64,000 nucleotides of DNA from an uncultured bacterium (GTDB lineage Bacteria > Verrucomicrobiota > Kiritimatiellia > RFP12 > UBA1067). The position numbers and the translations under genes were made by a program. Shown here one piece after another: positions 22,236 through 47,762 of this stretch (positions are counted from its first letter, which is position 1; each line of letters begins with the position of its first letter). Under the pieces are notes generated by a model. It had not been told where the DNA came from. It was given only the letters and a program-made list of their open reading frames with translations, and searched no databases. Location: positions 14,462 through 78,461 of the forward strand of contig CACWIW010000006.1 in NCBI GenBank assembly GCA_902761035.1, read 5' to 3'.

Positions 22236-22244
22236 TATAAGACC

Positions 22245-24335: not shown

Positions 24336-25658
24336 TCAAATCAAGCCAACTATTTCCTTAATTGGCAAACAGAGTTCCGCACTGGCCTCCTGTGCACGTT
24401 CACATTCAAGGATGCGCTCAGCACACTTAAGCATGGCAGGATAGGCTGCACGAAGAAGTTGGTTCGCGTAAATGACAATATTGACGCCGATCGCGGCAAG
24501 CTCGGTCTCCGTAACCTGTGAGTAGGTGGAGGGAACAACCACAATTGGCTTGTCCACAGAGACCTCGGCACGAAAGCGCCTGACAAAAGACAGTATCTCG
24601 TCTGGCGTTTTCGCCTTGGAGTGAATCATGATTCCATCAGCGCCTGCGTTAATGTAAGCACGACAACGATTGATTGCGTCGTCCTCGCCGGCTCCGGTGA
24701 TGAGCGATTCGCAGCGAGCGAAAATCATGAAGTCATCCGTAATCTGCGCCTGCTTGCCGACCGTGATTTTATGGCACTGGTCCTCAGTTGAAGCCTGACG
24801 CTGAACATTACCCTGTTCAAGAAGCGAATTTTGCTTGAGCCCCACCTTGTCCTCGATGATGACAGCAGAGACGCCAAGGCGTTCAAGCGAACGAACAAGA
24901 AACACAAAGTGCTCGGGAAGTCCGCCGGAATCGCCGTCATAGATAATCGGTTTCGTCGTCACTTCGAGGATGTCGTTGACCGTGCGAAGACGTGAGGTGA
25001 TATCGACGGATTCGTTATCAGGCTTGCCCTTCAACGTAGAATCGGTGAGCGACGAGAGCCACATCGCATCGAACTCGTGCTTCACCTTTGCACCATTCGG
25101 ATCACCGGGATCCTTCGGCACCATCACACTCGTGTTTTCGACGATGAGGCCGGAAAGTCCGCTGTGCGCCTCCATTACGCGAACGATGGGTTTGGCGTTC
25201 AAGAGACGGCGCAAGCGGCGACGGCGGATGTCCGGCGTGGTACCAACTTCGCGGATGGCCTTGTTGAGTTGCGTCGAAGAAATGCCTTCCGTGTATTCCG
25301 GCTCAACGAGCTCGCCGCCCCATGTCGCGAGGGTGTCGATCACGCGCTGGCGCGTCTTCGCCTGGACGCCCTCACGCCAGTCGGTGCCGTGAACGACATA
25401 GTCCGGCTTGAGTTTGAGGAGGTTCGGGATGTAGTCGAGCTGCTCCTGGGGGATGACTTCATTCACGCCCTTGAGCGAGCGCACCACTGCGGCGCGCTGC
25501 TCGTAATTCATGTAGGGCAGACGCTTGTAGCTCGCAATGGCCGCGTCGGTCAAGACGCCGACGGTGACTTCACCAAGCTTAGATGCTTCCTTGATGATAT
25601 TGAGATGCCCCGGATGAATGATATCCGCAGACATCGCAACATATACGCGCTTAGACAT
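24336..25658 (-). CDS. Bifunctional cytidylyltransferase (PntC-like) / phosphoenolpyruvate phosphomutase fusion, copy A
   Basis: N-terminal [13 protein letters not shown] (HxGH cytidylyltransferase) is fused to a PEP mutase/isocitrate-lyase-superfamily domain ([29 protein letters not shown]). It is about 95% identical to copy B at 40121. Confidence 0.8.
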
Positions 25659-26631
25659 TGAATGATTCCTTTCTGACCTCAACAGGATTGTTTCCGAGGC
25701 GCTTCAGGTTGACATGGGAGAAAAGCTCATCGACGAGAGAAGTGCAGTCGATGCCTTTTTCAGTGGCAAGTTCCCGGAGAGTCTTCAATTCAGGCACATT
25801 CTTGATGTACTCTGGATGCCCGTTGTTGCGGCAGATGTACTCGAAGACCATATACACGGCGTGCCCATGCGGGATGCCGTAATGCGAAGTGAGATAATAC
25901 GAGAACGCATGCGCGGCAGTTGTGCGCGAGATGTCAATCGCTCTTCCCGCCCAGTAGCTCGCCTCCGGCCAGTCATCCCCCTTCATCAGCGCAAGCGCAC
26001 GATTCGCATATTCCTTCGACTCATCCGTTGCACCCTTCGCCCAAAGCGATTCAACCGCCTGGGCGTATGCGTCAAAGTTCGTCGCTGCTTTCTGATAGGC
26101 GGGCAATGTGGCAGAAAACTCCGGGACAATTGCCACGTCAGAAGGGCGGAGCACCTCAAAGTCGATGGAGTATTTCGTTTCGCCATCATAGCAGACGGCA
26201 AAGCGCGTGGCCTCTGCGCCTGTTCCCGCCGTTGTCGGGATTGCAAAACATGGCAACACGGTCGATGGCGCTGTTTTATGAGTTAGCAGTTCCCTGATCG
26301 ACATTCCAGAAACAATCGCGAGATTAAGTAGCTTCGAAGTATCAATCGGAGTGCCACCGCCTACGGCAATGAAGCCATCTACAGGTTCCTTGATCGCTGA
26401 AAGCAACGACTGCACCTCTTCAACCTTAGGATTTGAACTGGGAACAGCAAGATGTGTGATGATTGGTTTGTTAACGCAGAGACGCAGGGACGCAGAGATA
26501 AAATCCTCCGCACCGCAAAGCCTGTACGACGCTCCCCCTGTCACGAGGCAGATGTGAGACTTACTTGTAGAAAACTTAACCAGAGCCTCTACAGCATTTT
26601 CCCTACCAACTACCAATTTTTGTTCATTCAT
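25651..26631 (-). CDS. Iron-containing alcohol dehydrogenase, phosphonoacetaldehyde reductase (PhpC)-like, copy A
   Basis: Group III Fe-ADH fold (GGGTPIDT..., [19 protein letters not shown]). It sits in the phosphonate block. It carries the in-frame (ACGCAGAG)3 repeat encoding SLRLC. Confidence 0.7.
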
Positions 26632-26635
26632 ATCC

Positions 26636-28045
26636 TCATGTCCTTTTACCATGCAGTACAAAGAAAACAATTCCGAGAAGAGACCAGAGGCCCAGCATCA
26701 TGTATGCCTGCTTGTTCAGGCAACCCGGCATTCCCGGGATGAGCAGCAGCGCGACAAAACCGAGGGATAGAATGGTTCCTAGCACTGCAAGGCATCGCAG
26801 AGCCGTCCTTGGCTGTGCCTCAAGACCCTGTGAACGTCTCCGGCGGATTGTCACAAAGCAACTCCAGGTAGCATATCCAAAACCGATCGCTCCACCTATC
26901 GCCGCCATGTCCACAAACCATCCAAGCGCCGTACGCCCGAACCAAGGGCCGACTACCGAGAACACCAGACAAAATAGGATCGCATTTGCAGGCGTACCAT
27001 GCGTGGGATGAAGCTTCGCAAACATTGCAGGGATATACCCATCTCGTGCCATCGAATAGAGCAGACGACTTGTAGCCGTGAGAAATCCAAGTATGCCGGT
27101 CAAGATCGCGCTTGCTACGGCTATCCCAAGTACCACCAGTCCCGCCTTGCCCATCAGCGCCTCTACTGCCGCACCCACAGCCCAATCGTGTTGTTTGATG
27201 AATTCCGTCCATTCCGGAGATGCCGCCGCCGTCACGAGGTTGTTGCAGGAATACACCACACATCCAAAGGCGATTGCCACAATCATGATCAAGTTCACCT
27301 TGCCGATCGAGAAATTGAGCTCCTCGGCCGCCTGCGGAATCGTCTCAAATCCGACGTATGCCCATGGCGCCACCGCCACGATTGCCAGGATTCCGCCCAC
27401 GGCTTGCTTGGAGAACACGCTCGTGCAGTCGGCAGATGGTCCCCACAGCGGAACGAGGTTTGACCAGTGCGTAATCGGGCTAAACAACGCCGAGATAGTA
27501 ATCACCAGAAAGGCCGTTGCGAGCGAGATGGCCATGATCGACTGAACCAAGCCAGATTTCTTAATGCCGCGAATCGAGAGCCAAGAGACAAACACCAGTA
27601 CCGCAATGGAAAGCAGCACCTCCCCAAACCAGATGTCATATCCCACCACTTGATACAGTTTGCCAAACTGGAACACGCCGAAGAACAACTTGCGCGTCAT
27701 CAACCCCAACGCCGTGCAGTTCATGGGGACATTCGCCAAATAGGCCAATGCCAGAAACCAGCCGCAGAAGCACGCATGTTTGTCGCCAAAGCACTCGCGC
27801 GCAAAATTGACCTCGCCTCCGGCCTTGGGATGAAGCGACACCATGTAGCTGTAGCTGAAGGCGATGACCACCATGATCAGCGCCCCAATCACCATGGCGA
27901 TGGTCGTACCCAGCGTCCCTGCGGTTGGAAGGAACGTCGTTCCAGGCATCATGAACGCGCCCCATCCAATGATGCAGCCAAACGCTAGCGCCCACACGCT
28001 CATCGGCGAAAGGTCGCGCTTGAATCTGGTGTTGTCCGAGGACAT
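26636..28045 (-). CDS. APC-superfamily amino acid permease, copy A
   Basis: 469 aa with 12 predicted TM helices and the APC/AA_permease_2 pattern. Confidence 0.65.
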   Translation of the reverse strand: MSSDNTRFKRDLSPMSVWALAFGCIIGWGAFMMPGTTFLPTAGTLGTTIAMVIGALIMVVIAFSYSYMVSLHPKAGGEVNFARECFGDKHACFCGWFLALAYLANVPMNCTALGLMTRKLFFGVFQFGKLYQVVGYDIWFGEVLLSIAVLVFVSWLSIRGIKKSGLVQSIMAISLATAFLVITISALFSPITHWSNLVPLWGPSADCTSVFSKQAVGGILAIVAVAPWAYVGFETIPQAAEELNFSIGKVNLIMIVAIAFGCVVYSCNNLVTAAASPEWTEFIKQHDWAVGAAVEALMGKAGLVVLGIAVASAILTGILGFLTATSRLLYSMARDGYIPAMFAKLHPTHGTPANAILFCLVFSVVGPWFGRTALGWFVDMAAIGGAIGFGYATWSCFVTIRRRRSQGLEAQPRTALRCLAVLGTILSLGFVALLLIPGMPGCLNKQAYMMLGLWSLLGIVFFVLHGKRT

Positions 28046-28047
28046 CG

Positions 28048-29169
28048 TCAGGAATTGTATCTCACCTTGACACCAAACGCTGTGATCGCGTCTTTCAAGA
28101 CTTTCATGAAGTCATCAATGTCGCACGCATCAATTGCGCCGAGTGCACACAACCTGAAGGTCTTCACGGAACCGACCTTGCCGGCATAAATGGTAAAACC
28201 ACGGTCACGGCAATAGTCATGGATCTTCTCAAAGGACCAGTTCGGATCATCGGGATAGCAGACGGATATCACAAGGCCAGCCTGATACTCTCTTTTGATG
28301 AGGCTGCGGAGTCCAATCTCTGCAAGTCCCTTGTGAAGTGCTTCGAACACACGGGTATGCCGAGCCCATTTTGCAGTCTCGCCCTCTGCAAAATACTCCT
28401 TCATCGCCTGCCTCGTTGCGTAGATGGTCTGGACAGGCGGCGTGAAATGCATCTCGCCGGTCTTCTCGAAGAAATCATACTGACGGAAGAGGTTGCAGTA
28501 GAAGGACCTCTTCGGGAAGGTGGCCGACTCCTTGATCTTGTCCTCGCGTCCGACCACGAAGGATAACCCCGTCATCGACTGCAAGCCCTTCTGGGCACTT
28601 GCCATCAGGAAGTCCACGTTGTCGTCGATGATGTTAATGGGGCGCATCGCGTATGTTGATGTCGTATCCACAATGAAGGTACAGCCATGTTTGTGGGCAA
28701 CAGCACCGATCTCGCGCATTGGATTGAGCACACCAGAACCCGTTTCATGATGGGTGGTGTACACGAGAGCGACATCGGGGTTCACGGTAAGAGCCTTGTC
28801 CACCAGTGAAGGATCGACAGGCGTCTCGATCGGCAAACTGAGGTCGATATGCGGCATGCCGTAATACTGGCACACTTCTACCGCCCTGCTCGAATACGCT
28901 CCGTTGTTGGCCACGAGGATCTTCTTGTCTGCGGGCAGAAGCGAATTGAGGCAGACATCCATGTTCAACGTTCCCGAACCGCAGAAGAGAACGCTCGTGT
29001 ACCGCTCGTCGCCATGAACGACCTTCACCAAATCGCGGCGGAGGTCTTTCATGATGTCGAGGAACTCCTGCTCGCGCGGACAAATGTCCGGTATCACCTG
29101 CGCCATCTTGACAGTGTCCGTGGTCGTTGCAGGGCCAGGGTTCAACAGCACATTACGTTTGACAGTCAT
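28048..29169 (-). CDS. phnW: 2-aminoethylphosphonate--pyruvate transaminase, copy A
   Basis: LLNPGPATTTDTV N-terminus is typical of PhnW. It is a class V aminotransferase of 373 aa. Confidence 0.75.
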   Translation of the reverse strand: MTVKRNVLLNPGPATTTDTVKMAQVIPDICPREQEFLDIMKDLRRDLVKVVHGDERYTSVLFCGSGTLNMDVCLNSLLPADKKILVANNGAYSSRAVEVCQYYGMPHIDLSLPIETPVDPSLVDKALTVNPDVALVYTTHHETGSGVLNPMREIGAVAHKHGCTFIVDTTSTYAMRPINIIDDNVDFLMASAQKGLQSMTGLSFVVGREDKIKESATFPKRSFYCNLFRQYDFFEKTGEMHFTPPVQTIYATRQAMKEYFAEGETAKWARHTRVFEALHKGLAEIGLRSLIKREYQAGLVISVCYPDDPNWSFEKIHDYCRDRGFTIYAGKVGSVKTFRLCALGAIDACDIDDFMKVLKDAITAFGVKVRYNS

Positions 29170-29224
29170 TTCATCGTACCTTTCTTTTTCTTGGTGATTC
29201 TGAAATTATGATCGCAGTCATTGT

Positions 29225-30340
29225 TTATGCGTCCGCCAAAGTCTTCATATAGAGCGCCTTGTTGACCTGCGGCGGCTCCTTCGGGCGCCCGAGGTCCTTG
29301 CGTGCACCTTTTGCCACCTTGACCTCTACGAATACCGGACGGGTATTATTTAACGCAGAGACGCAGAGGCACAGAGCGTGTTCAAGAAGCTGAACATCGT
29401 ATCCTAAGGCAGCAGCAACTGACATAAGGTTAATTGCCCCACCGACGGTTGGCTGACCACCGACTGAGTCATGCGCGGCATTGTTGAAGACGATGTGCGT
29501 CAAATTGGAACAGCCGGATTGTCCGACAATCGCCATATTACCCATCTGCATAATACTTGCGCCGTCGCCGTCTAGGCAATAGACTTTGCGGTGGGGTTGC
29601 GCCTTGGCGATTCCAAGGGCAATCATTGACGCATGGCCCATTGAGCCAACTGTCAGGAAGTCGCGCGAATGGTCCTGCCCGAGGCGTTCGCGCGTCTCAT
29701 ACACCTCACGCGAAATCATACCGGTTGTCGAAACGACAACGGCGTCTTTCGGTAATGCCCTCAGTACGCCCTCAATCGCCTGCTCGCGGGGGAGCGTTGC
29801 GATGTCGAGTTTTTTGTTCTGCAATTTGTATTCGGCAAAGAGTCCCTTTCGGACAACAAGCGCGACTGGACGCGATTCCGCCTTGGCGCGTTCGACCATC
29901 TTCCGTGTCAGTTCAAGCGCGGCGACCTCGTCATCCGGCAGAATTTCCGTCGGGATGCCCAGCGTCTCGAAAAGCGAGACCGTCACCTTGCCCTGTTTCA
30001 CGTGCTGCGGCTCGTCCTTCACGCCTGGCTCACCGCGCCAGCCGACGAGCAGCACCATAGGAATGGAGTAGACATCCGGATCGGCTAGTGACGCAAGCGG
30101 ATTCACGGCATTGCCCTGTCCCGAGTTCTGCATGTACACGAGCGCGGGCTTTCCTGTTGCGAGGTAATGTCCTGCGGCCAACCCAACCGACCCTCCCTCA
30201 TTCGCGGCAATCACATGCTCTCCCCCACAGTTGTCTGTGACGTAGGCGCAAAAGCTCTTCAACAGCGAATCTGGAACTCCTGTGAAGAAATCTACTCCGC
30301 TCTTTTGCAGAGCCTCAACGACTTTAGCGACATTAACCAT
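29225..30340 (-). CDS. ppd: Phosphonopyruvate decarboxylase, copy A (TPP enzyme)
   Basis: TPP_enzyme_N domain (GVPDSLLKSFCAYV) and the TPP-binding GDGA...N motif (CLDGDGASIMQMGNMA). It is co-located with ppm. Its C-terminal region contains the (ACGCAGAG)-type repeat encoding LCLCVSAL. Confidence 0.8.
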   Translation of the reverse strand: MVNVAKVVEALQKSGVDFFTGVPDSLLKSFCAYVTDNCGGEHVIAANEGGSVGLAAGHYLATGKPALVYMQNSGQGNAVNPLASLADPDVYSIPMVLLVGWRGEPGVKDEPQHVKQGKVTVSLFETLGIPTEILPDDEVAALELTRKMVERAKAESRPVALVVRKGLFAEYKLQNKKLDIATLPREQAIEGVLRALPKDAVVVSTTGMISREVYETRERLGQDHSRDFLTVGSMGHASMIALGIAKAQPHRKVYCLDGDGASIMQMGNMAIVGQSGCSNLTHIVFNNAAHDSVGGQPTVGGAINLMSVAAALGYDVQLLEHALCLCVSALNNTRPVFVEVKVAKGARKDLGRPKEPPQVNKALYMKTLADA

Positions 30341-30354
30341 TATTCTTTGCTTTC

Positions 30355-31407
30355 CTATAATCTTGTAATCTTATGAAATAGTTTACGGCAAATCGCACCG
30401 ATACCATCATACTTTAGTACCTCGCACACTCGCTTTAGGAGATGAACTTTGCCTTGATCAGATAGGACCCTATCAATATATATCTTAATTTCTCCACAAG
30501 AACAAGAGTGCTGAATTATGTCCCGTTTCGTCGCTTGCACAAACCAATCCCACCGATCACGAACCATCTCGCGGTACTTGTCTTGCAACTGTTCAATCAG
30601 TTTTCTGTCCGCAGAAATCATCTGCCTCAACTTTAGTATGTCATCACCAACCAACAAAAAATATTGTTCTAACGTAAACCGTTCAGCACTCTCAAGTCCT
30701 TTGTCATGAAAAAAGTGCATCTGCTCTTCATAAGCAAGGTGCTGCTGTTCGGCAATTTGGGGCTTCCATTTTGATCCGAAGGCACTATCACTTCTCGAAC
30801 GATATCTGTATAGTGCTTCAGCGACAAAAGGCACTTTCGAATAATCATACAAAATCTTGTGCAAAACATACCTATCCTCGCTGTACGCGATACCGACTGG
30901 AAATCTGATATTATCCCACAACCGCCGTTTGTAGATTTTTCCACATGACCACGCACAAAGCGAATTGTATTCAACGTAGAGTTCTTCAGGCGGGAACATT
31001 CCGCTCGCGCAAGGCCCCACAAAAACATCTTTTCGATCACAGCCGAAACGAAGTACTCCTCCAATTGCAAGATCGGCATTGGATTTCTTCGCTGCGTCAA
31101 GTAAACGGGCCAGAAAATCCTCCCGCAAAAGATCGTCAGCATCAAGAAACGCTATCCATTCTCCCTGTACCGTGTCCAGTGCCTTGTTCCTCGCCGCGCT
31201 GACACCGGCGTTGGGTTGGTGGATGACGCGGAAGCGGGTGTCCTTCGCCGCGTATTCATCAAGGATTGTGCCCGAACCGTCAGTCGAACCATCATCAACG
31301 CAGATCGCCTCCCAGTCGGGGAAGGTCTGGGCGAGAACTGAATCCAAGCACTCGCACAGATACGGCGCGACGTTATAGACCGGAATGATAATGGAGAAGA
31401 AAGGCAT
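30355..31407 (-). CDS. Glycosyltransferase family 2
   Basis: FSIIIPVYNVAPYLCECLDSV ... DDGSTD. Confidence 0.7.
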   Translation of the reverse strand: MPFFSIIIPVYNVAPYLCECLDSVLAQTFPDWEAICVDDGSTDGSGTILDEYAAKDTRFRVIHQPNAGVSAARNKALDTVQGEWIAFLDADDLLREDFLARLLDAAKKSNADLAIGGVLRFGCDRKDVFVGPCASGMFPPEELYVEYNSLCAWSCGKIYKRRLWDNIRFPVGIAYSEDRYVLHKILYDYSKVPFVAEALYRYRSRSDSAFGSKWKPQIAEQQHLAYEEQMHFFHDKGLESAERFTLEQYFLLVGDDILKLRQMISADRKLIEQLQDKYREMVRDRWDWFVQATKRDIIQHSCSCGEIKIYIDRVLSDQGKVHLLKRVCEVLKYDGIGAICRKLFHKITRL

Positions 31408-31408
31408 T

Positions 31409-31466
31409 TTAGTCGCTAGTCGTTAGTCGATAGTCGTTAGTCGCTGGTCGTTTGTCGCTGGTCGAT
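31409..31466. repeat. Tandem TAGTCGN heptamer array (left arm)
   Basis: tagtcgctagtcgttagtcgatagtcgttagtcgctggtcgtttgtcgctggtcg overlaps the 3' end of the four-helix-bundle ORF. Confidence 0.7.
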
Positions 31467-31819
31467 AGATAGCGAGAAAGACCGTTGATTAGCTTGGCTA
31501 CTTCACTGAATAAATCGATAAGTTCAGAAGACATTCGTAAAAAGCCAAGTGATTCTGCCAACTCAAGTTGAGTCTTTGTTTCATAAAGCGAACCTCTTGC
31601 AATAGACAAAAAATGCTTGAAATCCTTATCTGTCTCTCGTCCAAAACCTTCAGCAATATTCGATGGGACAGATACTACCGCTCTTCTAATCTGATCACCT
31701 AATCCATACACCTCATCTTTAGGAAATTGCTTCTGTACCCCATACACAATCTTTGCCAAGAGCATGGCCTTCTGCCACGCCAATAGCTCTTCATAGCTCT
31801 TCACTTTCATACTCACCAT
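31409..31819 (-). CDS. Four-helix-bundle protein (TIGR02436, 23S rRNA intervening-sequence protein family)
   Basis: SYEELLAWQKAMLLAKIVY...FPKDEVYGLGDQIRRAVVSVPSNIAEGFGR...FLSIARGSLYETKTQLELA is the canonical family sequence. Confidence 0.85.
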   Translation of the reverse strand: MVSMKVKSYEELLAWQKAMLLAKIVYGVQKQFPKDEVYGLGDQIRRAVVSVPSNIAEGFGRETDKDFKHFLSIARGSLYETKTQLELAESLGFLRMSSELIDLFSEVAKLINGLSRYLSTSDKRPATNDYRLTTSD

Positions 31820-31826
31820 CTCAACT

Positions 31827-31877
31827 ACTAGCGACTAACAACTAGCGACTAACAACTAGCGACTAACGACTAAACGA
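31827..31877. repeat. Tandem CGACTAN array (right arm, inverted relative to the left arm)
   Basis: ctagcgactaacaactagcgactaacaactagcgactaacgactaaacga lies immediately upstream of the four-helix-bundle start. Confidence 0.7.
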
Positions 31878-32094
31878 TACGCTCCGCGCCCCTAGGGTAT
31901 GCAGCCGAATACCCCGTCCTGTCGTTTGATCTTTTTTTGTTGCGCCGATTGCGCTCATGAAACACCGCATATTATACCAAATTTTGTAGTCCCTTGGCAG
32001 ACGAACCTACACTACATTCATCATCAATCCTTCGGCAACACACAATCCTTCCGCGCGTGTCACAAACCCCTCTATACGCGTGAACAACTTCCGC

Positions 32095-33291: not shown

Positions 33292-33306
33292 TTATAACAG
33301 TAGTTA

Positions 33307-36542: not shown

Positions 36543-36843
36543 CTTTCAATCGTTCAACTCACAGATCACATGAAATTGTCTAGCCATAAATGTTGTATAG
36601 TCTCATGGGGTATTCCGTGTATTTAAAGAATCCAACATATTTGCATCTATTCAAGAGTACCAACCTTGTCGTTAAGCAGGTTTTCCGTCAAATACCCCGC
36701 ATCCCCAAAAACGGAGTCGGTACTTTATCTTACTTGATATGGTGCGGCAACGTGAAGCAATCAAACTGGCATTCTTCCAACTTTTTACAATATTACAGAT
36801 ATCAACCATATTGCATTCCTATAGGCCAACGACCTACTACATA

Positions 36844-37647: not shown

Positions 37648-38912
37648 AAGGCATCTATCATATCTAGGCCAAACGAAGGAATTCTACATTTTTTTATTAC
37701 GACTACTCTTTCCGCATAAGAATCATCTATGAAAATTGCCTTTTTATTGTCAATGAAATCAGCTTTACTATTATTTTTGCCAATGTGTATTACCCTTGTG
37801 AACAAACCGTCAAGCTTGTGTTTACGTATATCGGAAAATAAATCTCCATCATGCCGTGAAAGAACGGTCACCTTTATACCTCTGTTAATACACGAGAACA
37901 CCAGACACATCACTTTGGGATTTATCATTCCCGTTGAGGACATCACCACCGTATCATCATAGTCTAAAAAAATCTCATTATACTCTAGGCTCAATTTATA
38001 ACGGTTATCCAATGCTCGATCCATTTCAATAGGAAAATTGTTTGTCACAACTGACACATCGGCACCAAGTGCATCCCAAAGGGAAAGAAGGGCAAAGTTT
38101 ATACCCCGTCCGCGGAACAAACTTGACGATCCCCCGAATCGAGCAGCCACCTCAAGCAGAGCTAGTTCGCCATCGCAAGCACGCTTAAACTGTGCAAACC
38201 ACGCTCCTCTAAACTTCAACGCATAATTGATTTTGCTGACCAAATTGCCAAACTCATTTTGTTCCACATCGTCAACAGGCTCTGTGTGAACACTAATGCC
38301 ATTCATGGTACGGGCCCTTACACGCGCACCCGCAAATAGCAATTTTCCATTCTTGTCAGAAAAGCAATCCACCGTATATTCGTCACCTGGAAGGAGTTCA
38401 AGTAGCAAGACATTCTTGTTTTTTAAAAGGAACGCCTCTTTCTCCGATTCCGAGCCTAAGATTGCGACTCCTCTTGAACTATGCCCTATGTCTGGTTTGG
38501 CAAAGACAGGATATTCCATACGATCATTTTCTGAATATACCGTAGGGGTACGAATTATATTTTTCAGGGCGGAATAAGTCATACGTTTTGACAAACAGGT
38601 CTTAACCGTATCAACTGGGGACGTTACCACATAACAACCGAGTTCTATTTCTGCTTGTTTCAAAACAGCAAGGGACATATCCGTGGCTGGGTAAATCAAG
38701 TCTATGTTATGTGTCTTAACGATTTTCTTTACAAATGGAATAAACTCTTCGCTATCAATCCATGGGATACCATCAACGATGTCATCATAAACAAAACGAC
38801 CATGATCATCAACAGAAGAGCCCCCTACAAGGTGAAAGTGTCGATCACCTGACAGTGATCGCGCAATCTCAAGTGCGATTTCAGATCCGCATGGAAAAAC
38901 GAACACATTTTT
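37629..38912 (-). CDS. ATP-grasp domain protein with C-terminal HAD-like domain
   Basis: N-terminal ATP-grasp (carboxylate-amine ligase) pattern. C-terminal KAIFIDDSYAERV HAD motif I-like. Such enzymes decorate sugars with amino acids. Confidence 0.5.
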   Translation of the reverse strand, partial: KNVFVFPCGSEIALEIARSLSGDRHFHLVGGSSVDDHGRFVYDDIVDGIPWIDSEEFIPFVKKIVKTHNIDLIYPATDMSLAVLKQAEIELGCYVVTSPVDTVKTCLSKRMTYSALKNIIRTPTVYSENDRMEYPVFAKPDIGHSSRGVAILGSESEKEAFLLKNKNVLLLELLPGDEYTVDCFSDKNGKLLFAGARVRARTMNGISVHTEPVDDVEQNEFGNLVSKINYALKFRGAWFAQFKRACDGELALLEVAARFGGSSSLFRGRGINFALLSLWDALGADVSVVTNNFPIEMDRALDNRYKLSLEYNEIFLDYDDTVVMSSTGMINPKVMCLVFSCINRGIKVTVLSRHDGDLFSDIRKHKLDGLFTRVIHIGKNNSKADFIDNKKAIFIDDSYAERVVVIKKCRIPSFGLDMIDALCDNWR

Positions 38913-38916
38913 CATA

Positions 38917-40044
38917 CTACAACACAATCTCCTTTACATTCTCTGCTATCGCCTTGGTATCCTCAAACGGCAAACCGTAGTATGTTGGGAGAGTCAATAC
39001 TCGTGCGGCAACATTCTCTGCATTTGGACAAGTACCCTTTGCGTATGCGTATGGTGCAAAGTCCGTCAGAAGCGGATAGAAGTAGCGACGAGAGAACACA
39101 TTGCACTTCTCCCTCAATTCAGAATAAACCCGTTCTCGCGTGGCGAAGTCCTTGAACAAGACAGGAACATACGCCTTGTTCTGTGAGTACGGGATAAGCT
39201 TCACTTCTTCGCAACCTGCAAAACTCTCTGCATACGCATCGTAAATCTTCTGACGATAATCCAATAGTTCGTCAATCTTCTTCAAGCACTCCAACCCCAT
39301 CAACGCCTGAAGCTCGTTCATCTTCGCATTCGATCCGACATCCACGCATTCCGTTTCGCTATGGATCGCAAAGTTCCTCAGCTCAAACAACTTCTCCTGT
39401 ACCTTCGCATCTTTGAATACCAGCAATCCGCCCTCGCATGAATGGAACAGCTTCGTCGGATGAAAACTAAACATGCTCATATCCCCACAACACCCGATGC
39501 TCTTCTTTTCTACACGTTCTACATGTTCTACACGGCTAAAAACCCCAAAAGCATGCGCCGCATCGTAAATGATCTTCACGCCATACTTCTTGCCCAGCCT
39601 CTCAAACCCTTCCACGTCGCACACATTCCCATACACATGCACTGGTACAATTGCTTTCGTGCGGGGCGTTATCAATTTCTCCGCCGCCTCCGGCGAAAGG
39701 CACATTGTTTCAGGATCGATGTCAGCAAAAATCGGATTCGCGCCAATCCGCTTCAGCGCATGGCTTGTCGCGACAAACGTAAACGGCGTTGTTATGACGT
39801 CACCGCCCGATAGTCCCATCGCGTAATAACCAAGCTCGAGCGCAAGCGTACCGTTGTTGAAGAGCGCAAGGTTTGTTTCAGGTACGCCAAGGTACCCCGA
39901 CAGTTCCTTCTGGAACCGTTGCAGCATCGGCCCGTTGTTCGTGAGCCACTGGTTTGACCACACCTCCTCCAACCCCCGCTTGAATTCCTCCAGCGGCGGC
40001 AGATACGGCCTCGTCACCAATATCGGTTTCTCAAATCGTCTCAT
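38917..40044 (-). CDS. DegT/DnrJ/EryC1/StrS-family sugar aminotransferase; carries an in-frame RVEHVERVE insertion
   Basis: 375 aa with the PLP-dependent sugar aminotransferase pattern (FSFHPTKLF lysine). The 30-nt ttctacacgttctacatgttctacacgg is identical to a segment in the GT4 gene at 10125. Confidence 0.7.
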   Translation of the reverse strand: MRRFEKPILVTRPYLPPLEEFKRGLEEVWSNQWLTNNGPMLQRFQKELSGYLGVPETNLALFNNGTLALELGYYAMGLSGGDVITTPFTFVATSHALKRIGANPIFADIDPETMCLSPEAAEKLITPRTKAIVPVHVYGNVCDVEGFERLGKKYGVKIIYDAAHAFGVFSRVEHVERVEKKSIGCCGDMSMFSFHPTKLFHSCEGGLLVFKDAKVQEKLFELRNFAIHSETECVDVGSNAKMNELQALMGLECLKKIDELLDYRQKIYDAYAESFAGCEEVKLIPYSQNKAYVPVLFKDFATRERVYSELREKCNVFSRRYFYPLLTDFAPYAYAKGTCPNAENVAARVLTLPTYYGLPFEDTKAIAENVKEIVL

Positions 40045-40059
40045 TAAAACGCTCCGCGC

Positions 40060-40100
40060 ACATGGTACATCTCTGCGACTCTGCGTCTCTGCGTTAAAAC
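40060..40100. repeat. Inverted 40-bp fragment of the Fe-ADH gene, including the (CTCTGCGT)n motif, at the duplication boundary
   Basis: atctctgcgactctgcgtctctgcgttaaaaccaatc is the reverse complement of gattggttt(a)ttaacgcagagacgcagagacgcagagat, which is found inside the ADH genes at 26462 and 42244. Confidence 0.7.
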
Positions 40101-40120
40101 CAATCAGGCCACTTTTAAAC

Positions 40121-41443
40121 TCAAATCAACGATATGATTTCCTTAATCGGCATGCAGAGTTCCGTGCTGGCTTCTTGTGCGCGTTCACATTCGAGGATGC
40201 GCTCGGCGCACTTGCGCATCGCTGGGTAGGCGGCACGGAGAAGCTGGTTTGCGTAGATGACGACGTTGACACCGATTGCAGCGAGTTCGGATTCCGTCAC
40301 CTGTGAATAGGTGGAGGGAACAGCAACAATCGGCTTGTCAGCGGAAACCTCAGCACGGAAAAGTTTGACGAAAGATACGATTTCATCCGGAGTCTGAGCC
40401 TTGGAGTGGATCATGATTCCGTCAGCGCCCGCATCGATATAGGCGCGACAACGATTGATGGCGTCCTCCTCGCCCGCACCGGTTATGAGCGATTCGCAAC
40501 GAGCAAAGATCATGAAGTCATCTGTAATCTGTGCCTGCTTGCCGACCTTGATCTTGTGGCACTGATCTTCAATGGATGCCTGACGCTGGACGTTACCCTG
40601 CTCAAGGAGCGAGTTCTGCTTGAGTCCGATTTTGTCCTCGATGACAACTGCCGAGACGCCAAGGCGTTCAAGCGAACGAACGAGAAACACGAAGTGCTCG
40701 GGAAGCCCACCAGAGTCGCCATCGTAAATGATGGGTTTGGTCGTCACTTCAAGGATGTCATTCACCGTGCGAAGGCGCGAGGTGATATCGACGGATTCGT
40801 TATCAGGCTTGCCTTTCAACGTAGAGTCGGTAAGCGACGAGAGCCACATCGCGTCGAACTCATGCTTCACCTTGGCTCCGTTTGGGTCGGCGGGATCCTT
40901 CGGCACCATCACGCTCGTGTTCTCGACGATGAGGCCGGAAAGTCCGCTGTGCGCCTCCATCACACGAACGATGGGTTTGGCGTTCAAGAGGCGACGTAGG
41001 CGGCGGCGGCGGATATCCGGCGTGGTGCCTACTTCGCGGATGGCCTTGTTGAGCTGTGTGGAGGAAATGCCCTCGGTGTATTCCGGTTCAACAAGCTCGC
41101 CGCCCCAGGTCGCGAGGGTGTCGATGACGCGCTGGCGCGTCTTCGCCTGTACTCCCTCGCGCCAGTCGGTGCCGTGGACGACGTAGTCCGGCTTGAGCTT
41201 GAGGAGGTTCGGGATGTAGTCAAGCTGCTCTTGCGGAATGACTTCGGTCACGCCCTTGAGCGCACGGACCACAGCAGCGCGCTGTTCGTAGTTCATGTAA
41301 GGCAGGCGCTTGTAGCTCGCAATGGCAGCATCCGTAAGAACGCCAACGGTTACGTCACCAAGCTTGGACGCTTCCTTGATGATGTTCAGGTGGCCGGGGT
41401 GAATGATGTCGGCCGACATCGCGACATAGACGCGCTTATGCAT
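40121..41443 (-). CDS. Bifunctional cytidylyltransferase / PEP phosphomutase fusion, copy B
   Basis: [22 protein letters not shown]...; near-identical to copy A. Confidence 0.8.
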
Positions 41444-42416
41444 TGAAAGACTCCTTCTTTACTTCAACAGGATTGTTTCCAAGACGCTTTAGGTTAACAT
41501 GGGCGAAAAGATCGTCAACGAGAGCATCCCAAGTGAGGCCCTTTTCGGCGGCGAGTTCGCGGAGTGTCTTCAATTCTGGTACACTCTTGATGCACTCAGG
41601 ATGTCCGTTGTTACGGCAGATATACTCAAACACCATGTACACCGCATGACCATGCGGAATGCCGTAGTGCGAGGTAAGGTAGTACGAAAACGCATGCGCG
41701 GCAGTGGTGCGAGAGATGTCAATCGCCCTTCCCGCCCAGTAGCTTGCCTCCGGCCAATTATCCTCCTTCATCAGCGCAAGCGCACGGTTCGCATACTCTT
41801 TCGATTCCACCGTGGCGCCCTTCGCCCAAAGCGACTCCACTGCTTGCGCGTATGCGTCAAAGTTTGTCGCCGCCTTCTGGTACGGCGTCTGCGTGGCAGA
41901 AAACTCTGGAACAAGTGCAACGTCCGAAGGACGTATCACCTCGAAGTCGATGGAGTACTTAACCTCTCCATCATAACACACCGCAAACCGCGTTGCCTCG
42001 GCGCCAGTGCCGGCTGTTGTCGGAACAGCCATGCACGGCAAGACTTTCGATGGCGCGGACTTGTTCGTTAGAAGCTCCTTGACTGACATCCTGGAAACAA
42101 TCGCGAGATTAAGCAGCTTCGCAGTATCAATCGGAGTTCCCCCGCCTACGGCGATAAAACCATCTACAGGTTCCTTGTTCTCTGAAAGCAACGCCTGGAC
42201 CTCTTCTACTTTGGGATTTGCACTGGGAACGGCAAGATGCGTGATGATTGGTTTATTAACGCAGAGACGCAGAGACGCAGAGATTAAATCCTCCGCACCG
42301 CAAAGTCCATACGATGCTCCCCCCGTCACGAGGCAGATGTGAGACTTGCTTGTAGAAAACTTAACCAGAGCCTCTACAGCATTTTCCCTACCAACTACTA
42401 ATTTTTGTTCAGCCAT
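41436..42416 (-). CDS. Fe-alcohol dehydrogenase (phosphonoacetaldehyde reductase-like), copy B
   Basis: Near-identical to copy A and overlaps the ppm start by 8 nt in the same way. Confidence 0.7.
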
Positions 42417-42420
42417 ATCC

Positions 42421-43830
42421 TCATGCCCCTTTACCATGCAGTGCAAAGAAAACAATTCCAATAAGAGACCAGATGCCCAGCATCATGTATGCCTGCTTGT
42501 TAAGGCAACCCGGCATTCCCGGGATGAGCAGCAGCGCGATAAAACCGAGGGATAGGATGGTTCCTAGCACTGCAAGGCATCGCAGAGCCGTCCTTGGCTG
42601 TGCCTCAAGACCCTGTGAACGTCTTCTGCGGATTGTCACAAAGCAACTCCAGGCTGCATACCCAAAACCAATCGCCCCGCCAATCGCCGCCATGTCCACG
42701 AACCATCCAAGCGCCGTGCGCCCAAACCACGGACCAACTACCGAGAACACCAGACAGAAGAGGATTGCGTTCGCAGGAGTACCATGCGCGGGGTGAAGCT
42801 TCGCAAACATTGCAGGAATATACCCATCCCGTGCCATCGAATAGAGCAGACGGCTTGTAGCCGTAAGAAAGCCAAGTATGCCGGTCAAAATTGCACTTGC
42901 CACAGCTATACCAAGCACCACCAGCCCCGCCTTGCCCATCAGCGCCTCCACGGCCGCGCCAACTGCCCAGTCATGCTGTTTGACGAATTCCGTCCACTCC
43001 GGCGATGCCGCCGCCGTCACGAGGTTGTTACAGGAATACACCACGCATCCAAAGGCGATTGCCACAATCATGATCAGGTTTACCTTGCCAATCGAGAAAT
43101 TAAACTCCTCAGCTGCCTGCGGAATCGTCTCGAATCCAACGTACGCCCACGGCGCTACCGCCACAATCGCCAGGATGCCGCTCATGGCTTGCTTGGAGAA
43201 CAAGCTCGTGCAGTGGGTGGAAGGCCCCCAGAGCGGAACAAGGTTTGACCAGTGCGTAATCGGACTGAATAACGCCGAGATGGTAATCACCAGAAAGGCT
43301 GTCGCAAGAGAGATTGCCATGATCGACTGCACCAAGCCCGATTTCTTAATGCCGCGAATCGAGAGCCACGAGACAATCACCAAAACCACAATGGAAAGCA
43401 ATACCTCCCCGAGCCAGATATCATATCCCGCCACTTGATACAGTTTGCCGAACTGAAACACGCCGAAGAACAACTTGCGCGTCATCAATCCCAACGCCGT
43501 GCAGTTCATGGGGACATTCGCCAAATAGGCCAATGCCAGAAACCAACCGCAAAAGCACGCATGTTTGTCGCCAAAGCACTCTCGCGCAAAGTTGATCTCG
43601 CCTCCGGCCTTGGGATGAAGCGACACCATGTAGCTGTAGCTGAAGGCGATGACCACCATGATCAGCGCCCCAATGACCATAGCAATAGTCGTACCAAGCG
43701 TTCCAGCCGTAGGAAGGAAAGTCGTTCCGGGCATCATGAACGCACCCCATCCTACGATGCAGCCAAACGCCAGCGCCCACACGCTCATCGGCGAGAGGTC
43801 GCGCTTGAATCTGGTCTTGTCCGATGACAT
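42421..43830 (-). CDS. APC-superfamily amino acid permease, copy B
   Basis: 469 aa, about 95% identical to copy A. Confidence 0.65.
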   Translation of the reverse strand: MSSDKTRFKRDLSPMSVWALAFGCIVGWGAFMMPGTTFLPTAGTLGTTIAMVIGALIMVVIAFSYSYMVSLHPKAGGEINFARECFGDKHACFCGWFLALAYLANVPMNCTALGLMTRKLFFGVFQFGKLYQVAGYDIWLGEVLLSIVVLVIVSWLSIRGIKKSGLVQSIMAISLATAFLVITISALFSPITHWSNLVPLWGPSTHCTSLFSKQAMSGILAIVAVAPWAYVGFETIPQAAEEFNFSIGKVNLIMIVAIAFGCVVYSCNNLVTAAASPEWTEFVKQHDWAVGAAVEALMGKAGLVVLGIAVASAILTGILGFLTATSRLLYSMARDGYIPAMFAKLHPAHGTPANAILFCLVFSVVGPWFGRTALGWFVDMAAIGGAIGFGYAAWSCFVTIRRRRSQGLEAQPRTALRCLAVLGTILSLGFIALLLIPGMPGCLNKQAYMMLGIWSLIGIVFFALHGKGA

Positions 43831-43832
43831 TC

Positions 43833-44954
43833 TCAGGAATTGTACCTTACATTGATGCCGTATGTCGTAATAGCGTCCTTCAAAACCTTCATGAAGTTTT
43901 CAATGTCACATGCATCAATTGCACCGAGAGCACAGAGTCTGAAAGTCTTCACCGATCCGACCTTGCCTGCGTAAATTGTGAAACCACGGTCACGACAATA
44001 ATCGTGTATCTTCTCGAAGGACCAGTTCGGGTCATCGGGATAGCAGACGGATATCACGAGGCCGGCTTGATATTCACGCTTGATGAGGCTGCGAAGTCCA
44101 ATCTCTGCAAGCCCTTTGTGAAGTGCTTCGAACACGCGGGTATGCCGTGCCCATTTTGCAGTCTCTCCCTCTGCAAAATACTCCTTCATCGCTTGCCTTG
44201 TCGCGTAGATGGTCTGGACAGGCGGCGTGAAATGCATCTCACCGGTCTTCTCGAAGAAATCATACTGACGAAAGAGATTACAGTAGAAGGATCTCTTCGG
44301 AAACGCAGCCGACTCCTTGATCTTGTCCTCGCGCCCGACCACAAAGGACAACCCCGTCATCGACTGCAAGCCCTTCTGCGCGCTTGCCATCAGAAAATCA
44401 ACATTGTCGTCGATTATGTTGATAGGGCGCATCGCGTATGTTGATGTCGTATCTACAATGAAGGTACAGCCATGTTTGTGGGCAACAGCACCGATCTCGC
44501 GTATTGGATTGAGTACTCCGGACCCGGTTTCGTGATGGGTAGTGTACACGAGAGCAACATCTGGGTTCTCGGCAAGAGCCTTGTCCACTAACGAAGGATC
44601 GACAGGCGTCTCAATCGGCAGACTCAAGTCTATGTGCGGCATGCCGTAATACCGGCATACATCTACCGCCCTGCTGGAATAAGCACCGTTGTTGGCCACG
44701 AGAATCTTCTTGTCTGCGGGAAGAAGCGAATTGAGGCAGACATCCATGTTCAACGTTCCTGATCCACAGAAGAGAACGCTCGTGTACCGCTCATCGCCAT
44801 GAACGACCTTCACCAAATCGCGACGGAGGTCTTTCATGATATCGAGGAACTCCTGTTCGCGCGGGCAAATGTCCGGTATCACCTGCGCCATCTTAACAGT
44901 GTCCGTTGTCGTTGCAGGACCAGGGTTCAACAATACATTACGTTTGACAGTCAT
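43833..44954 (-). CDS. phnW: 2-aminoethylphosphonate--pyruvate transaminase, copy B
   Basis: Near-identical to copy A. Confidence 0.75.
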   Translation of the reverse strand: MTVKRNVLLNPGPATTTDTVKMAQVIPDICPREQEFLDIMKDLRRDLVKVVHGDERYTSVLFCGSGTLNMDVCLNSLLPADKKILVANNGAYSSRAVDVCRYYGMPHIDLSLPIETPVDPSLVDKALAENPDVALVYTTHHETGSGVLNPIREIGAVAHKHGCTFIVDTTSTYAMRPINIIDDNVDFLMASAQKGLQSMTGLSFVVGREDKIKESAAFPKRSFYCNLFRQYDFFEKTGEMHFTPPVQTIYATRQAMKEYFAEGETAKWARHTRVFEALHKGLAEIGLRSLIKREYQAGLVISVCYPDDPNWSFEKIHDYCRDRGFTIYAGKVGSVKTFRLCALGAIDACDIENFMKVLKDAITTYGINVRYNS

Positions 44955-45008
44955 TTCATCGTACCTTTCTTTTGAGGGTGATTCTGGGGTTACGGCCGCA
45001 ATCGTTTC

Positions 45009-46211
45009 TCATGCGTCCGCCAAAGTTTTCATATAGAGCGCCTTGTTCACTTGCGGCGGCTCTTTCGGGCGTCCAAGGTCCTTGCGGGCGCCCTTCGCGA
45101 CTTTGAAAAGGATGAAGTTGGGTTTCTTGGGCAATTCATCACTATACTCGGACTTGTGCTGATTGAACTGCTCTTCCATCGAAATGAGCCAACGCATTCC
45201 AGAAGCGACATCATCAACGCCGATTCCTTGAGGATTGACGTACTGGTCTTGCGGAGACTGGAGGACATTGTAGCCCAGTTCTTCCGCAATCTTCTCGAAG
45301 TCGATCTCACCACCAACCGTTGGCTGACCACCAACCGAGTCGTGTGCGGCGTTGTTGAAGACGATGTGCGTGAGGTTGCCACATCCCGACTGTCCGACAA
45401 TCGCCATGTTGCCGAGGTGCATGATGCTGGCGCCGTCGCCGTCCAGGCAATAGACTTTACGATTCGGTTGCGCCTTGGCGATCCCAAGGGCGATCATTGA
45501 CGCATGGCCCATTGAGCCGACGGTCAGGAAGTCGCGCGAATGGTCCTGCCCGAGGCGTTCGCGCGTCTCATACACTTCACGCGAAATCATGCCGGTTGTC
45601 GAAACGACCACGGCGTCTTTCGGCAATGCCTTCAGAACGCCTTCGATCGCCTGTTCGCGCGGAAGCGTAGCGATGTTGGGTTTCTTGTTCTGCAATTTGT
45701 ATTCGGCAAAGAGTCCCTTTCGGACAACAAGCGCGACTGGACGCGATTCCGCCTTGGCGCGTTCGACCATCTTCCGCGTCAGTTCAAGCGCGGCGGCCTC
45801 GTCATCCGGCAAAATCTCCGTCGGGATGCCCAACGTCTCGAAGAGAGAGATGGTCACTTTACCTTGTTTCACGTGCTGTGGCTCGTCCTTCACGCCCGGC
45901 TCGCCCCGCCACCCAACGAGCAGAACCATCGGAATAGAGTAGACATCTGGATCGGCGAGTGATGCAAGCGGATTCACGGCATTGCCCTGTCCCGAGTTCT
46001 GCATGTACACGAGTGCTGGCATTCCCGTCGCAAGAAAATGCCCAGCCGCCAATCCAACCGCTCCACCTTCGTTCGCGGCAATCACGTGGTTCTTCCCGAA
46101 CGTATCGGTCACATACGCACAGAAGCTCTTCAACAGCGAATCCGGTACGCCTGCGAAGAACTCCACGCCCGCCGCCTTCAACCTATCAACAAACCTTTCA
46201 ACTTCAACCAT
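45009..46211 (-). CDS. ppd: Phosphonopyruvate decarboxylase, copy B (has about 30 extra residues near the C-terminus)
   Basis: MVEVERFVDRLKAAGVEFFAGVPDSLLKSFCAYVTDTFGKNHVIAANEGG.... Its 5' end and promoter are the sequence that is reiterated across the defence island. Confidence 0.8.
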   Translation of the reverse strand: MVEVERFVDRLKAAGVEFFAGVPDSLLKSFCAYVTDTFGKNHVIAANEGGAVGLAAGHFLATGMPALVYMQNSGQGNAVNPLASLADPDVYSIPMVLLVGWRGEPGVKDEPQHVKQGKVTISLFETLGIPTEILPDDEAAALELTRKMVERAKAESRPVALVVRKGLFAEYKLQNKKPNIATLPREQAIEGVLKALPKDAVVVSTTGMISREVYETRERLGQDHSRDFLTVGSMGHASMIALGIAKAQPNRKVYCLDGDGASIMHLGNMAIVGQSGCGNLTHIVFNNAAHDSVGGQPTVGGEIDFEKIAEELGYNVLQSPQDQYVNPQGIGVDDVASGMRWLISMEEQFNQHKSEYSDELPKKPNFILFKVAKGARKDLGRPKEPPQVNKALYMKTLADA

Positions 46212-46247
46212 CTCTCACCTTACCTCAACAATCATCTCACGTACACG

Positions 46248-46271
46248 GTACGTCACATATCGCAATATGTG
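46248..46271. promoter_or_regulatory. Operator-like imperfect palindrome GGTACGTCACATAT-N4-ATATGTG in the ppd-B promoter
   Basis: CACATAT/ATATGTG 7-bp inverted arms. It is reiterated at 46467, 52622, 54865, 61365 and 61610. Confidence 0.45.
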
Positions 46272-46466
46272 AAGCAACGCGGCAACGCTCCGCGCCCGTG
46301 GGGTATGCAGCCGAATACCTCATTCCTTCGCATTCTGATGTTTTAGCCACCATCGCGTTGCCGCATAGTGTAACCTATTTGTTGCGGGGTGTCAATGGGG
46401 AGACTTTGGATCTTCAGTTCCCAAACTCACCTTCACCACCACACACTTCACTCTGTCTGTCCACGC

Positions 46467-46491
46467 GGTACGTCACTTATCCGAATATGTG
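46467..46491. promoter_or_regulatory. Second copy of the operator-like palindrome (cacttatccgaatatgtg variant)
   Basis: ggtacgtcacttatccgaatatgtg. Confidence 0.4.
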
Positions 46492-47760: not shown

Positions 47761-47762
47761 GG

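Follow-up and report, generated by a model that had tools for sequence, protein, structure and literature searches.

Two diverged phosphonate modules in a predicted surface-glycan cluster of an uncultured rumen Kiritimatiellae bacterium

We analyzed a stretch of 64,000 nt from an uncultured Kiritimatiellia bacterium (GCA_902761035.1, contig CACWIW010000006.1, positions 14,462 to 78,461; hereafter the window, numbered from its first nucleotide), in which a five-gene block for predicted phosphonate synthesis is found twice. A blastn comparison of the window against itself, akin to the dot plot proposed in a preliminary description of this DNA, gave two co-linear alignments on the same strand: positions 24336-29322 against 40121-45106 (4987 bp, 87.3% identity, one gap, E = 0) and 29439-30298 against 45310-46169 (87.2% identity, E = 0). 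Block A spans 24336-30340 and block B 40121-46211; both lie on the minus strand, as direct copies 9.8 kb apart, and run from the start codon of ppd to the stop codon of ppm. Two co-linear blocks of about 6 kb, at exactly these coordinates and separated by about 10 kb of glycan genes, had been described before, and the interval does carry glycosyltransferase (GT), Wzx and LicD genes. The identity of 90 to 95% given there, however, is reached by proteins only, since the DNA is 87.3% identical (76% to 95% in windows of 250 bp). In the order of transcription, which is the same in both blocks, the genes encode phosphonopyruvate decarboxylase (Ppd; 84.9% protein identity between A and B), 2-aminoethylphosphonate (AEP) transaminase (AEPT; 96.8%), an APC-family permease (95.3%), an iron-containing alcohol dehydrogenase (Fe-ADH; 88.8%) and a cytidylyltransferase (CyTase) fused to phosphoenolpyruvate (PEP) mutase (CyTase::Ppm; 94.6%).

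The end points of the blocks had been called sharp, which is true of one side only. At low coordinates, similarity stopped at the ppm stop codon in A and B alike, with unrelated sequence beyond, while on the ppd side it faded across the first ~40 codons and ended at the ATG. Over the first 200 nt of ppd, the copies were 69% identical, with proportions of synonymous (pS) and nonsynonymous (pN) differences of 0.79 and 0.22. By blastn, Pfam, NCBIfam and gene spacing, block A is placed within an operon, starting 14 bp after a GT2 gene (30355-31407), and block B stands at the head of a glycan operon. The Fe-ADH and ppm genes overlap by 8 nt in both.

All ten genes were assigned on the minus strand from Pfam and NCBIfam profiles. 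The Ppd proteins (A, 29225-30340, 371 aa; B, 45009-46211, 400 aa) scored 474.7 and 461.2 bits on TIGR03297, above its cut-off of 312.5, and both carry the thiamine pyrophosphate motif GDG...NN at residue 258. Likewise, the transaminases of the AepZ/PhnW type (A, 28048-29169; B, 43833-44954) exceeded the TIGR03301 cut-off of 360.8 with 456.2 and 459.7 bits, and the PEP mutases (A, 24336-25658; B, 40121-41443) exceeded the TIGR02320 equivalog cut-off of 319.55 with 361.8 and 367.3 bits and have the motif EDKxxxxxNS at residue 269. The permeases (A, 26636-28045; B, 42421-43830) belong to PF13520. The Fe-ADHs (A, 25651-26631; B, 41436-42437) match PF00465, and the NCBIfam Fe-ADH family that fits them best is the phosphonate family TIGR03405 (Phn_Fe-ADH).

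The names given to these genes in the preliminary description (Ppd, PhnW, APC, Fe-ADH and Ppm) were thus retained, with the exception of "PntC" for the domain fused to the mutase. Cytidylyltransferases named PntC by Rice et al. 2019 are PF12804 (NTP_transf_3) enzymes that prefer AEP (PMC6697681), whereas the N-terminal domain here gave PF01467 only. With PF01467 followed by PF13714 and the motif HPGH at residue 15, the protein is a fusion of the Fom1 type, and its CyTase domain matched the Fom1 structure PDB 5x3d_A over residues 5-138 with 190 bits and ~63% identity. Fusions of PF01467 to Ppm make up 23.6% of Ppm proteins, and Fom1 itself cytidylylates 2-hydroxyethylphosphonate (HEP), in the sequence PEP to phosphonopyruvate to phosphonoacetaldehyde to HEP to CMP-HEP (PMC6697681).

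The two Ppd proteins are set apart by a single nonalignable segment near the C terminus (29323-29438 in A; 45107-45309 in B; minus strand, from the self-comparison and a Ppd alignment). As had been described, Ppd B has about 30 additional residues; the exact number is 29. In an alignment of A, B and Ppds from twelve relatives (loci of relatives are cited by our handles, L001 and so on), the segment of A, a helix reading LEHALCLCVSALN, was co-linear with LEHALRLCASALK in L093, with LENALRLCASALN in L083 and with the same helix in distant Ppds. Its LCLCVSAL stretch had been taken for a repeat-derived segment; this co-linearity with short-form orthologues does not support an insertion, although the DNA beneath it does contain a run of octamers. 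The short form was found in A, L083, L093, L081, L094 and L004, and the long form, with an insert of ~29 residues, in B, L003, L007, L085 and L001. Since TIGR03297 aligns with A across positions 1-358 of 360 and with B only up to position 306, and since relatives have the same two forms, the alignments identify Ppd A as the canonical form and Ppd B as a form with a lineage-specific insert.

Both Fe-ADH genes (26474-26498 and 42259-42283) contain the octamer run, CTCTGCGT with TAA after it. The run is also present in the variable segment of ppd A (29353-29377), where it is read in another frame than in Fe-ADH, and in antisense orientation at 40070-40094. In the window, CTCTGCGT runs gave 8 matches against 0.09 expected. 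The antisense occurrence is the core of a 38-nt copy of an Fe-ADH coding stretch at 40069-40106 (plus strand; self-comparison), which agrees with the earlier report of a 40-bp inverted fragment at this junction. It matches 26460-26499 on the opposite strand at 36 of 40 positions (the counterpart in block B itself is ~42245-42284) and is located within the 76 bp that separate ppm B from a DegT aminotransferase gene. We treat this fragment as a probable rearrangement scar. That it might be a pairing site for a regulatory RNA was considered and rejected, because it is not conserved at the ppm-DegT junctions of L044 and L007.

For the five A-B gene pairs, the Nei-Gojobori method gave synonymous divergence (dS) of 0.41 to 1.0 and ratios of nonsynonymous to synonymous divergence (dN/dS) of 0.028 to 0.076. 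All ten open reading frames (ORFs) are intact, and the diagnostic motifs HPGH (cytidylyltransferase), EDKxxxxxNS (Ppm) and GDG...NN (Ppd) are present in A and B. On these grounds, the sequences indicate that A and B alike are old and subject to purifying selection, and that neither is decaying. There was no sign of positive selection, dN/dS being low in all five pairs.

The blocks are part of a series of 35 co-directional genes that extends from 46.3 kb, at the leader of ppd B, down to 6.1 kb, at a Wzy-like gene, and in which only two gaps reach at least 284 bp. The leader occupies 46212-46395 on the minus strand and includes a hairpin element at 46285-46330 (self-comparison and site scan). 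Its best sigma-70-like site, TTGACA-17-TACACT at 46395-46367, serves as a pointer only, and counts in the promoter and terminator scan did not exceed those expected from shuffling (30 against 22.2, and 15 against 19). Between the blocks, on the minus strand at 30355-40044, Pfam identified, as transcribed, genes for a DegT aminotransferase, an ATP-grasp protein, LicD_B, a Wzx flippase (the only one in the window), a GT2-hexapeptide transferase, a GT1, a four-helix-bundle protein and a GT2. Downstream of block A (6119-24316, minus strand; Pfam and PADLOC) follow LicD_A, a class-V aminotransferase, an AIPR/AbiU insertion, a small cytidylyltransferase, LicD_3, Glf, two GT2s, LicD_4, a GT1, a GT2, two acyltransferases, a GT1, an epimerase, a GT2 and the Wzy-like protein. 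All four LicD proteins belong to PF04991 (cut-off 22.6 bits; LicD_A 141.9, LicD_B 97.2, LicD_3 104 and LicD_4 127 bits) and are 26 to 39% identical to one another. One LicD gene follows each block, and these two proteins are 28.6% identical.

Together, these features make it probable, in our judgment, that the window contains a one-directional surface-glycan cluster of about 40 kb from a rumen Kiritimatiellae bacterium, with two diverged and functional five-gene phosphonate modules, both of which appear to persist through purifying selection. In our proposal, LicD transferases receive CMP-AEP and/or CMP-HEP from each block, as far as the chemistry and the role of the permease can be predicted beyond family assignment. 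The Ppm domain would convert PEP to phosphonopyruvate, from which Ppd would form phosphonoacetaldehyde; this would be turned into AEP by the AepZ-type transaminase and/or into HEP by the Fe-ADH, activated to a CMP-phosphonate by the Fom1-type domain and attached to glycan by LicD-family transferases, each module feeding its neighboring transferases. CMP-HEP is proposed besides CMP-AEP because a Fom1-type CyTase occurs together with an Fe-ADH, and Fe-ADHs of the PhpC/FomC type are known to reduce phosphonoacetaldehyde to HEP (PMC8942020). By analogy with LicB, which imports choline, the APC permease most likely imports AEP for salvage. AEP was first discovered in rumen ciliates, which makes such salvage plausible in this habitat.

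Three known systems resemble parts of this scheme. The fosfomycin pathway of Streptomyces (Fom1, Fom2 and FomC) shares with the blocks the fusion of PF01467 to PEP mutase, with a CyTase ~63% identical, and the adjacent Ppd and Fe-ADH genes; relatives of the window carry exactly these three genes, and this three-gene core, which mirrors Fom2-FomC-Fom1, points to CMP-HEP as a likely product. Unlike that pathway, the block has no genes matching Fom3, Fom4 or FomD and has an extra AEP transaminase and APC permease. Its Fe-ADH shows only remote kinship to curated phosphonate Fe-ADHs, and its surroundings are those of a glycan cluster, with genes for LicD transferases, Wzx and Wzy. The Pnt clusters of Treponema denticola, Atopobium rimae and Olsenella uli (PMC6697681) have Ppm, Ppd, AEPT and a cytidylyltransferase in common with the window, the cytidylyltransferase being fused to Ppm in a cell-surface glycan setting with LicD-like phosphotransferases. 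Characterized PntCs are LicC-like PF12804 proteins, whereas the domain here is PF01467, and the Fe-ADH branch, the permease and the presence of two copies per cluster are features of the window.

In the lic1 loci (licA-D) of Streptococcus pneumoniae and Haemophilus influenzae, surface decoration with phosphocholine proceeds through a permease, cytidylyl activation and LicD transfer. The same succession (see also PMC6697681) is our model for the proposed salvage through APC, CyTase and LicD, with the differences that LicB and the APC permease are of separate families, that a phosphonate substrate needs no kinase and that the window adds de novo synthesis. If the proposed chemistry is right, an uncultured rumen Kiritimatiellae lineage would join the organisms whose surface glycans bear phosphonates. 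The comparison further suggests that glycan tailoring has taken over the Fom1/Fom2/FomC logic of an antibiotic pathway, and that CMP-HEP may be a donor beside CMP-AEP.

Several points weigh against this interpretation. The Fe-ADHs score 109 (A) and 104 (B) bits on TIGR03405, far below its cut-off of 423.7, and the role of putative phosphonoacetaldehyde reductase is therefore based on the Ppd-FeADH-Ppm context, not on family membership. The phosphonate made (AEP, HEP or both) is predicted from gene content, and the Fom1-like domain could equally well accept AEP. To our knowledge, no AEP transporter of the APC family has been described. With one Wzx and one Wzy-like gene in the cluster, the purpose of a second module is not obvious, and, as detailed below, parallels among relatives for the proposed origin of the locus are partial.

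Relatives carry the same genes in several combinations. Three-gene blocks of Ppd-FeADH-CyTase::Ppm were present in L001, L003, L004 and L005, and the five-gene block in single copy in L081, L083 and L093. Another Ppm paralogue accompanies Ppd-AEPT-APC in L084, L085 and L094, and L007 has two different Ppm genes. The AEPT-APC pair was always adjacent (L081, L083, L084, L085, L088, L093 and L094). A second instance of duplication seemed to be given by L001 and L002, which proved to be overlapping copies of one sequence in one metagenome-assembled genome (99.99% identical over 14.3 kb).

Block A was compared, gene by gene at the nucleotide level, with the single-copy alleles of L093 and L086 and with B. 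Identity of A was 86.0% to L093/L086 and 81.1% to B for Ppd, 91.6% and 89.6% for AEPT, 93.1% (L093) or 95.6% (L086) and 90.7% for APC, 88.7% (L093) or 91.8% (L086) and 84.0% for Fe-ADH, and 84.9% in both comparisons for Ppm. In a MAFFT alignment (auto mode), the p-distance from A to L093 was 0.111 versus 0.136 from A to B, with 100% bootstrap support (5967 ungapped columns). Quartet site patterns supported (A,L093) at 132 to 138 sites, (A,B) at 88 to 93 and (B,L093) at 87 to 90, the support for (A,L093) being clustered in two tracts. Sliding windows showed A and L093 to be 98 to 99.5% identical at 27430-27830, and identified a patch at 26630-27030 (minus strand; counterpart in B ~42415-42815) where A-B identity (92 to 95.5%) exceeded that of A and L093 (84.5 to 88%). 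This patch of ~400 bp looks like a tract of gene conversion between A and B. Because the quartet patterns conflict, the alignments indicate that A, B and the outside alleles are roughly equidistant mosaics, and because A is nearer to single-copy outside alleles than to B, the pair is not a recent tandem duplication. Phosphonate supply modules of this kind are mosaics at the level of the population, and one locus can contain more than one of them.

The surroundings of each block also recur separately in relatives. In L083, whose 60-kb contig has a single block, the order Wzx-GT2hex-block-LicD-LicD_A-aminotransferase-cytidylyltransferase-LicD_3 reproduces an internal context, while DegT follows ppm in L044 and L007, and in L007 a long-form Ppd heads the locus, downstream of leader relics of the kind described below. 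We therefore regard the locus as a probable composite, in which recombination among related strains would have joined a head-type phosphonoglycan locus (leader-ppd...ppm-DegT...) to an internal-type one (Wzx-GT-ppd...ppm-LicD-aminotransferase-cytidylyltransferase-LicD). Such a fusion is, we infer, the simplest reading of its origin. The parallels are incomplete in that L044 and L007, which have DegT after ppm, are without ATP-grasp, LicD_B and Wzx, and an ancient duplication in place, after which the L083 and L093 lineages lost B, may also account for the arrangement.

A composite origin is in keeping with the structure of the region upstream of block B. Here, the self-comparison revealed at least seven direct copies of the ppd leader with the first 15 to 37 codons of the gene, spread over 47648-61644 on the minus strand (47648-47703, 48518-48694, 52528-52654, 52926-53090, 54654-54943, 61295-61390 and 61412-61644), the longer of which are 85 to 97% identical to one another. 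Their junctions are of several types, after codon ~15-16, ~22 or ~37; in the last type, represented by four copies, a shared 60-nt sequence follows and leads into 56-aa ORFs. The junction sequence of the array is GTGACCGACACCTGTGTTGTGAAAAAAGCTACTCCACC. A 10-nt microhomology, GGGCG(C/T)GGAG, is found in the leader, again in ppd codons 16-18 and at the join of short tandem units. The 5' end of block B is 93% identical to one relic, and that of block A 67 to 69%.

Between the relics lie a gene for a PKD protein fused to ppd start codons, the pair IetA/IetS, a DUF4062-HATPase_c_4-wHTH protein, a truncated menD and several unknown genes. PADLOC assigned IetS (48815-51385, 949 bits) and the adjacent IetA (51392-52378, 410 bits) to the Iet defense system. 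An array of the same kind, with DUF4062 proteins and a RhuM-like gene, was present in L007 (1779-5307), and the junction sequence recurs in a relic of L090 (2611-2866) near a Schlafen/AlbA_2-HATPase_c_4 gene. The cassettes showed no presence/absence variation among contigs of near-identical strains, all of which had them in the same order. From these sequences, the head of such phosphonate operons looks like a recombination hotspot at which cassettes are captured, which fits the composite origin of the locus.

A more far-reaching version of this idea is that, in rumen Kiritimatiellae, the ppd leader and first codons act as a portable homology anchor where phosphonoglycan operons begin, capturing phosphonate modules and defense cassettes by single crossover or microhomology, and that AEPT-APC adds salvage of AEP, a compound abundant in rumen ciliates, to a HEP-type, Fom1-like module; we put this forward tentatively and consider it doubtful. 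If it were true, each capture would leave another leader relic, the two-block locus would be one of the products, and the captured cargo would comprise block B, with its relic-type 5' end, IetAS and the DUF4062/Schlafen-like ATPases.

Some further observations concern the array. Two genes at the upstream edge of the relic region (62098-63866) form an AbiL-like pair, one encoding an AAA_15/AAA_21 ATPase (AbiLi, 172 bits), the other a DUF3226 protein. The ORF at 55336-55971, with a TPP_enzyme_N domain, was considered as a long ppd relic, but it resembles neither Ppd A nor Ppd B and represents the N-terminal 211 aa of a truncated menD (120 bits versus a cut-off of 244), with a 78% identical homologue near the phosphonate block of L094. 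Amid the relics and defense genes there is also a short rmlC-like ORF (61670-62032, 120 aa), and this and the menD fragment may be remnants of earlier borders of the locus.

Of the rival readings, the one that fares best is sub-functionalization, in which the modules would deliver different phosphonates or fluxes (e.g., HEP versus AEP) to different LicDs. The divergence between A and B is mostly in Ppd (84.9%, with the two C-terminal forms) and Fe-ADH (88.8%), compared with 95 to 97% for AEPT, APC and Ppm; the LicDs that follow the blocks differ as noted, and relatives have kept both the short and the long Ppd form. Against this, the modules consist of the same five genes with the same motifs, dN/dS is low throughout, and Ppd variation cannot select the product because Ppd acts before the branch point of AEP and HEP. 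We consider a division of labor rather unlikely.

The preliminary description had proposed that the blocks, as long direct repeats, mediate deletion or amplification of the intervening GT/Wzx/LicD genes and thereby vary the glycan. RecA-mediated switching of this kind could draw on copies that are direct, 6 kb long and co-linear, with a few identical runs of 50 to 78 bp, and the gene-conversion-like patch suggests that they are able to interact. In addition, the relic-type leader and ppd 5' end of L161 lead straight into an A-like block, as they would in a deletion product; this block is only 92% identical to A and comes from another strain and lineage, and was rejected as a derivative of the present locus. 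The DNA of the copies has diverged by 13%, their longest identical run is 78 bp, only four runs reach at least 50 bp, and dS of 0.4 to 1.0 implies long coexistence or divergence without homogenization, one patch apart. Deletion would furthermore remove the only Wzx of the window and probably block export. With a longest identical run of 78 bp and the sole Wzx within the interval, a recombination switch is unlikely, and long repeats within a locus that are 87% identical and have dN/dS of ~0.05 would seem to represent stable paralogy instead.

The assembled contigs of the strain, from several samples, all keep the same order. The window differed from the rumen-type metagenome contig k141_1583631 of the European Nucleotide Archive (ENA) assembly ERZ27279956 by a 60-bp deletion at 47706/47707 and two single-nucleotide polymorphisms only; the 60 bp, present in the same-strain ENA contigs L163 and L164, fall between short direct repeats within a tandem leader relic. 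L164 has further small indels (47826-47972, 46405-46494 and 35081-35169). The same succession of block B, DegT, ATP-grasp, LicD, Wzx, GTs, ppd A and AEPT A is physically linked in scaffold_442 of ERZ913629, the flanks recur in ERZ28613414, ERZ28613601 and ERZ27279959, ERZ1029111 contains both copies at 100% identity, and the flanks or the two blocks are likewise found in Logan runs. No hybrid single-block or deletion variant of the strain was seen among the contigs of any recovered assembly. The B...A arrangement is a stable feature.

Duplicated regions within a capsule locus are known from Neisseria meningitidis, whose cps locus contains regions D and D'. There, likewise, precursor-supply genes are present twice in one surface-polysaccharide locus; the copies in the window differ in being direct, 13% diverged and each under purifying selection of its own, with no rearrangement seen between them.

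Still less likely than a switch is that one copy is a redundant passenger heading for decay. A single Wzx and a single Wzy-like gene suggest one glycan pathway, for which one module would be enough, but ten intact ORFs with their motifs and dN/dS of 0.03 to 0.08 at dS of 0.4 to 1.0 speak against decay. An apparent N-terminal shortening of APC_B (438 aa in scaffold_442; L169) was discarded as a sign of it, the DNA being identical and only the start call different. Finally, a chimeric join of two strains or a misresolved repeat, conceivable for a short-read metagenome contig with a MEGAHIT-style name (k141_1583631), is hardly credible and can be set aside because at least two independent assemblies share the B...A order and because copies at 87% identity are too unlike for an assembler to confuse.

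The duplication is of an ordinary, known kind of module; the leader-relic and defense array and a set of hairpin-bounded inserts are more unusual. In the interval between the blocks, the four-helix-bundle ORF (31409-31819; PF05635/TIGR02436) is enclosed by an inverted repeat of 46 to 53 nt made of octamer units, the whole insert being at 31408-31874. Inserts of the same layout were found in four relatives (L003, 9514-9999; L083, 12393-12889; L082, 4058-4426; L081, 6399-6835), each in an operon spacer and with its own inverted repeat of 26 to 53 nt, the repeat sequence differing from site to site. Most encode a four-helix-bundle "23S rRNA IVS protein" (IVS, intervening sequence), and the ORF in L081 is GxxExxY-like by eye. 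The inserts of relatives lie between Fe-ADH and ppm, the genes that overlap in the window blocks. Their layout suggests mobile IVS-like elements inside mRNA operons.

Downstream of LicD_A, the class-V aminotransferase, the stand-alone PF01467 cytidylyltransferase and LicD_3 (20033-23381) form a possible second donor pathway. The aminotransferase is 23% identical to AEPT and scores 166 bits on TIGR03301, below the cut-off, and the cytidylyltransferase is 39% identical to the CyTase domain of the fusion. L083 has all three genes conserved, and L081 the aminotransferase and the cytidylyltransferase. In the window, the AIPR/AbiU abortive-infection gene (20556-22235; PADLOC, 145 bits) lies between the aminotransferase and the cytidylyltransferase, which are adjacent without it in L083 and L081. 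Further downstream, 64 nt of LicD_4 (15595-15658) are 90.6% identical to LicD_A (24092-24155), although identity of the proteins is no higher than 39% over 120 residues; a microconversion or a strongly constrained motif could account for this.

An Rfam search of the whole window at gathering thresholds gave no match, so that the hairpin element of the ppd B leader belongs to no RNA family known there. This element of ~45 nt, GGTATTCGGCTGCATACC...GGGCGCGGAGCGT, occurs at 46285-46330, 54902-54945 and 31879-31924, i.e., upstream of ppd B, of a relic and of the four-helix-bundle ORF, and in part at 40049-40061, upstream of DegT. It was also found in relatives, at 86-123, 1222-1259 and 1544-1582 of L081 and at 300-343 and 973-1033 of L007.

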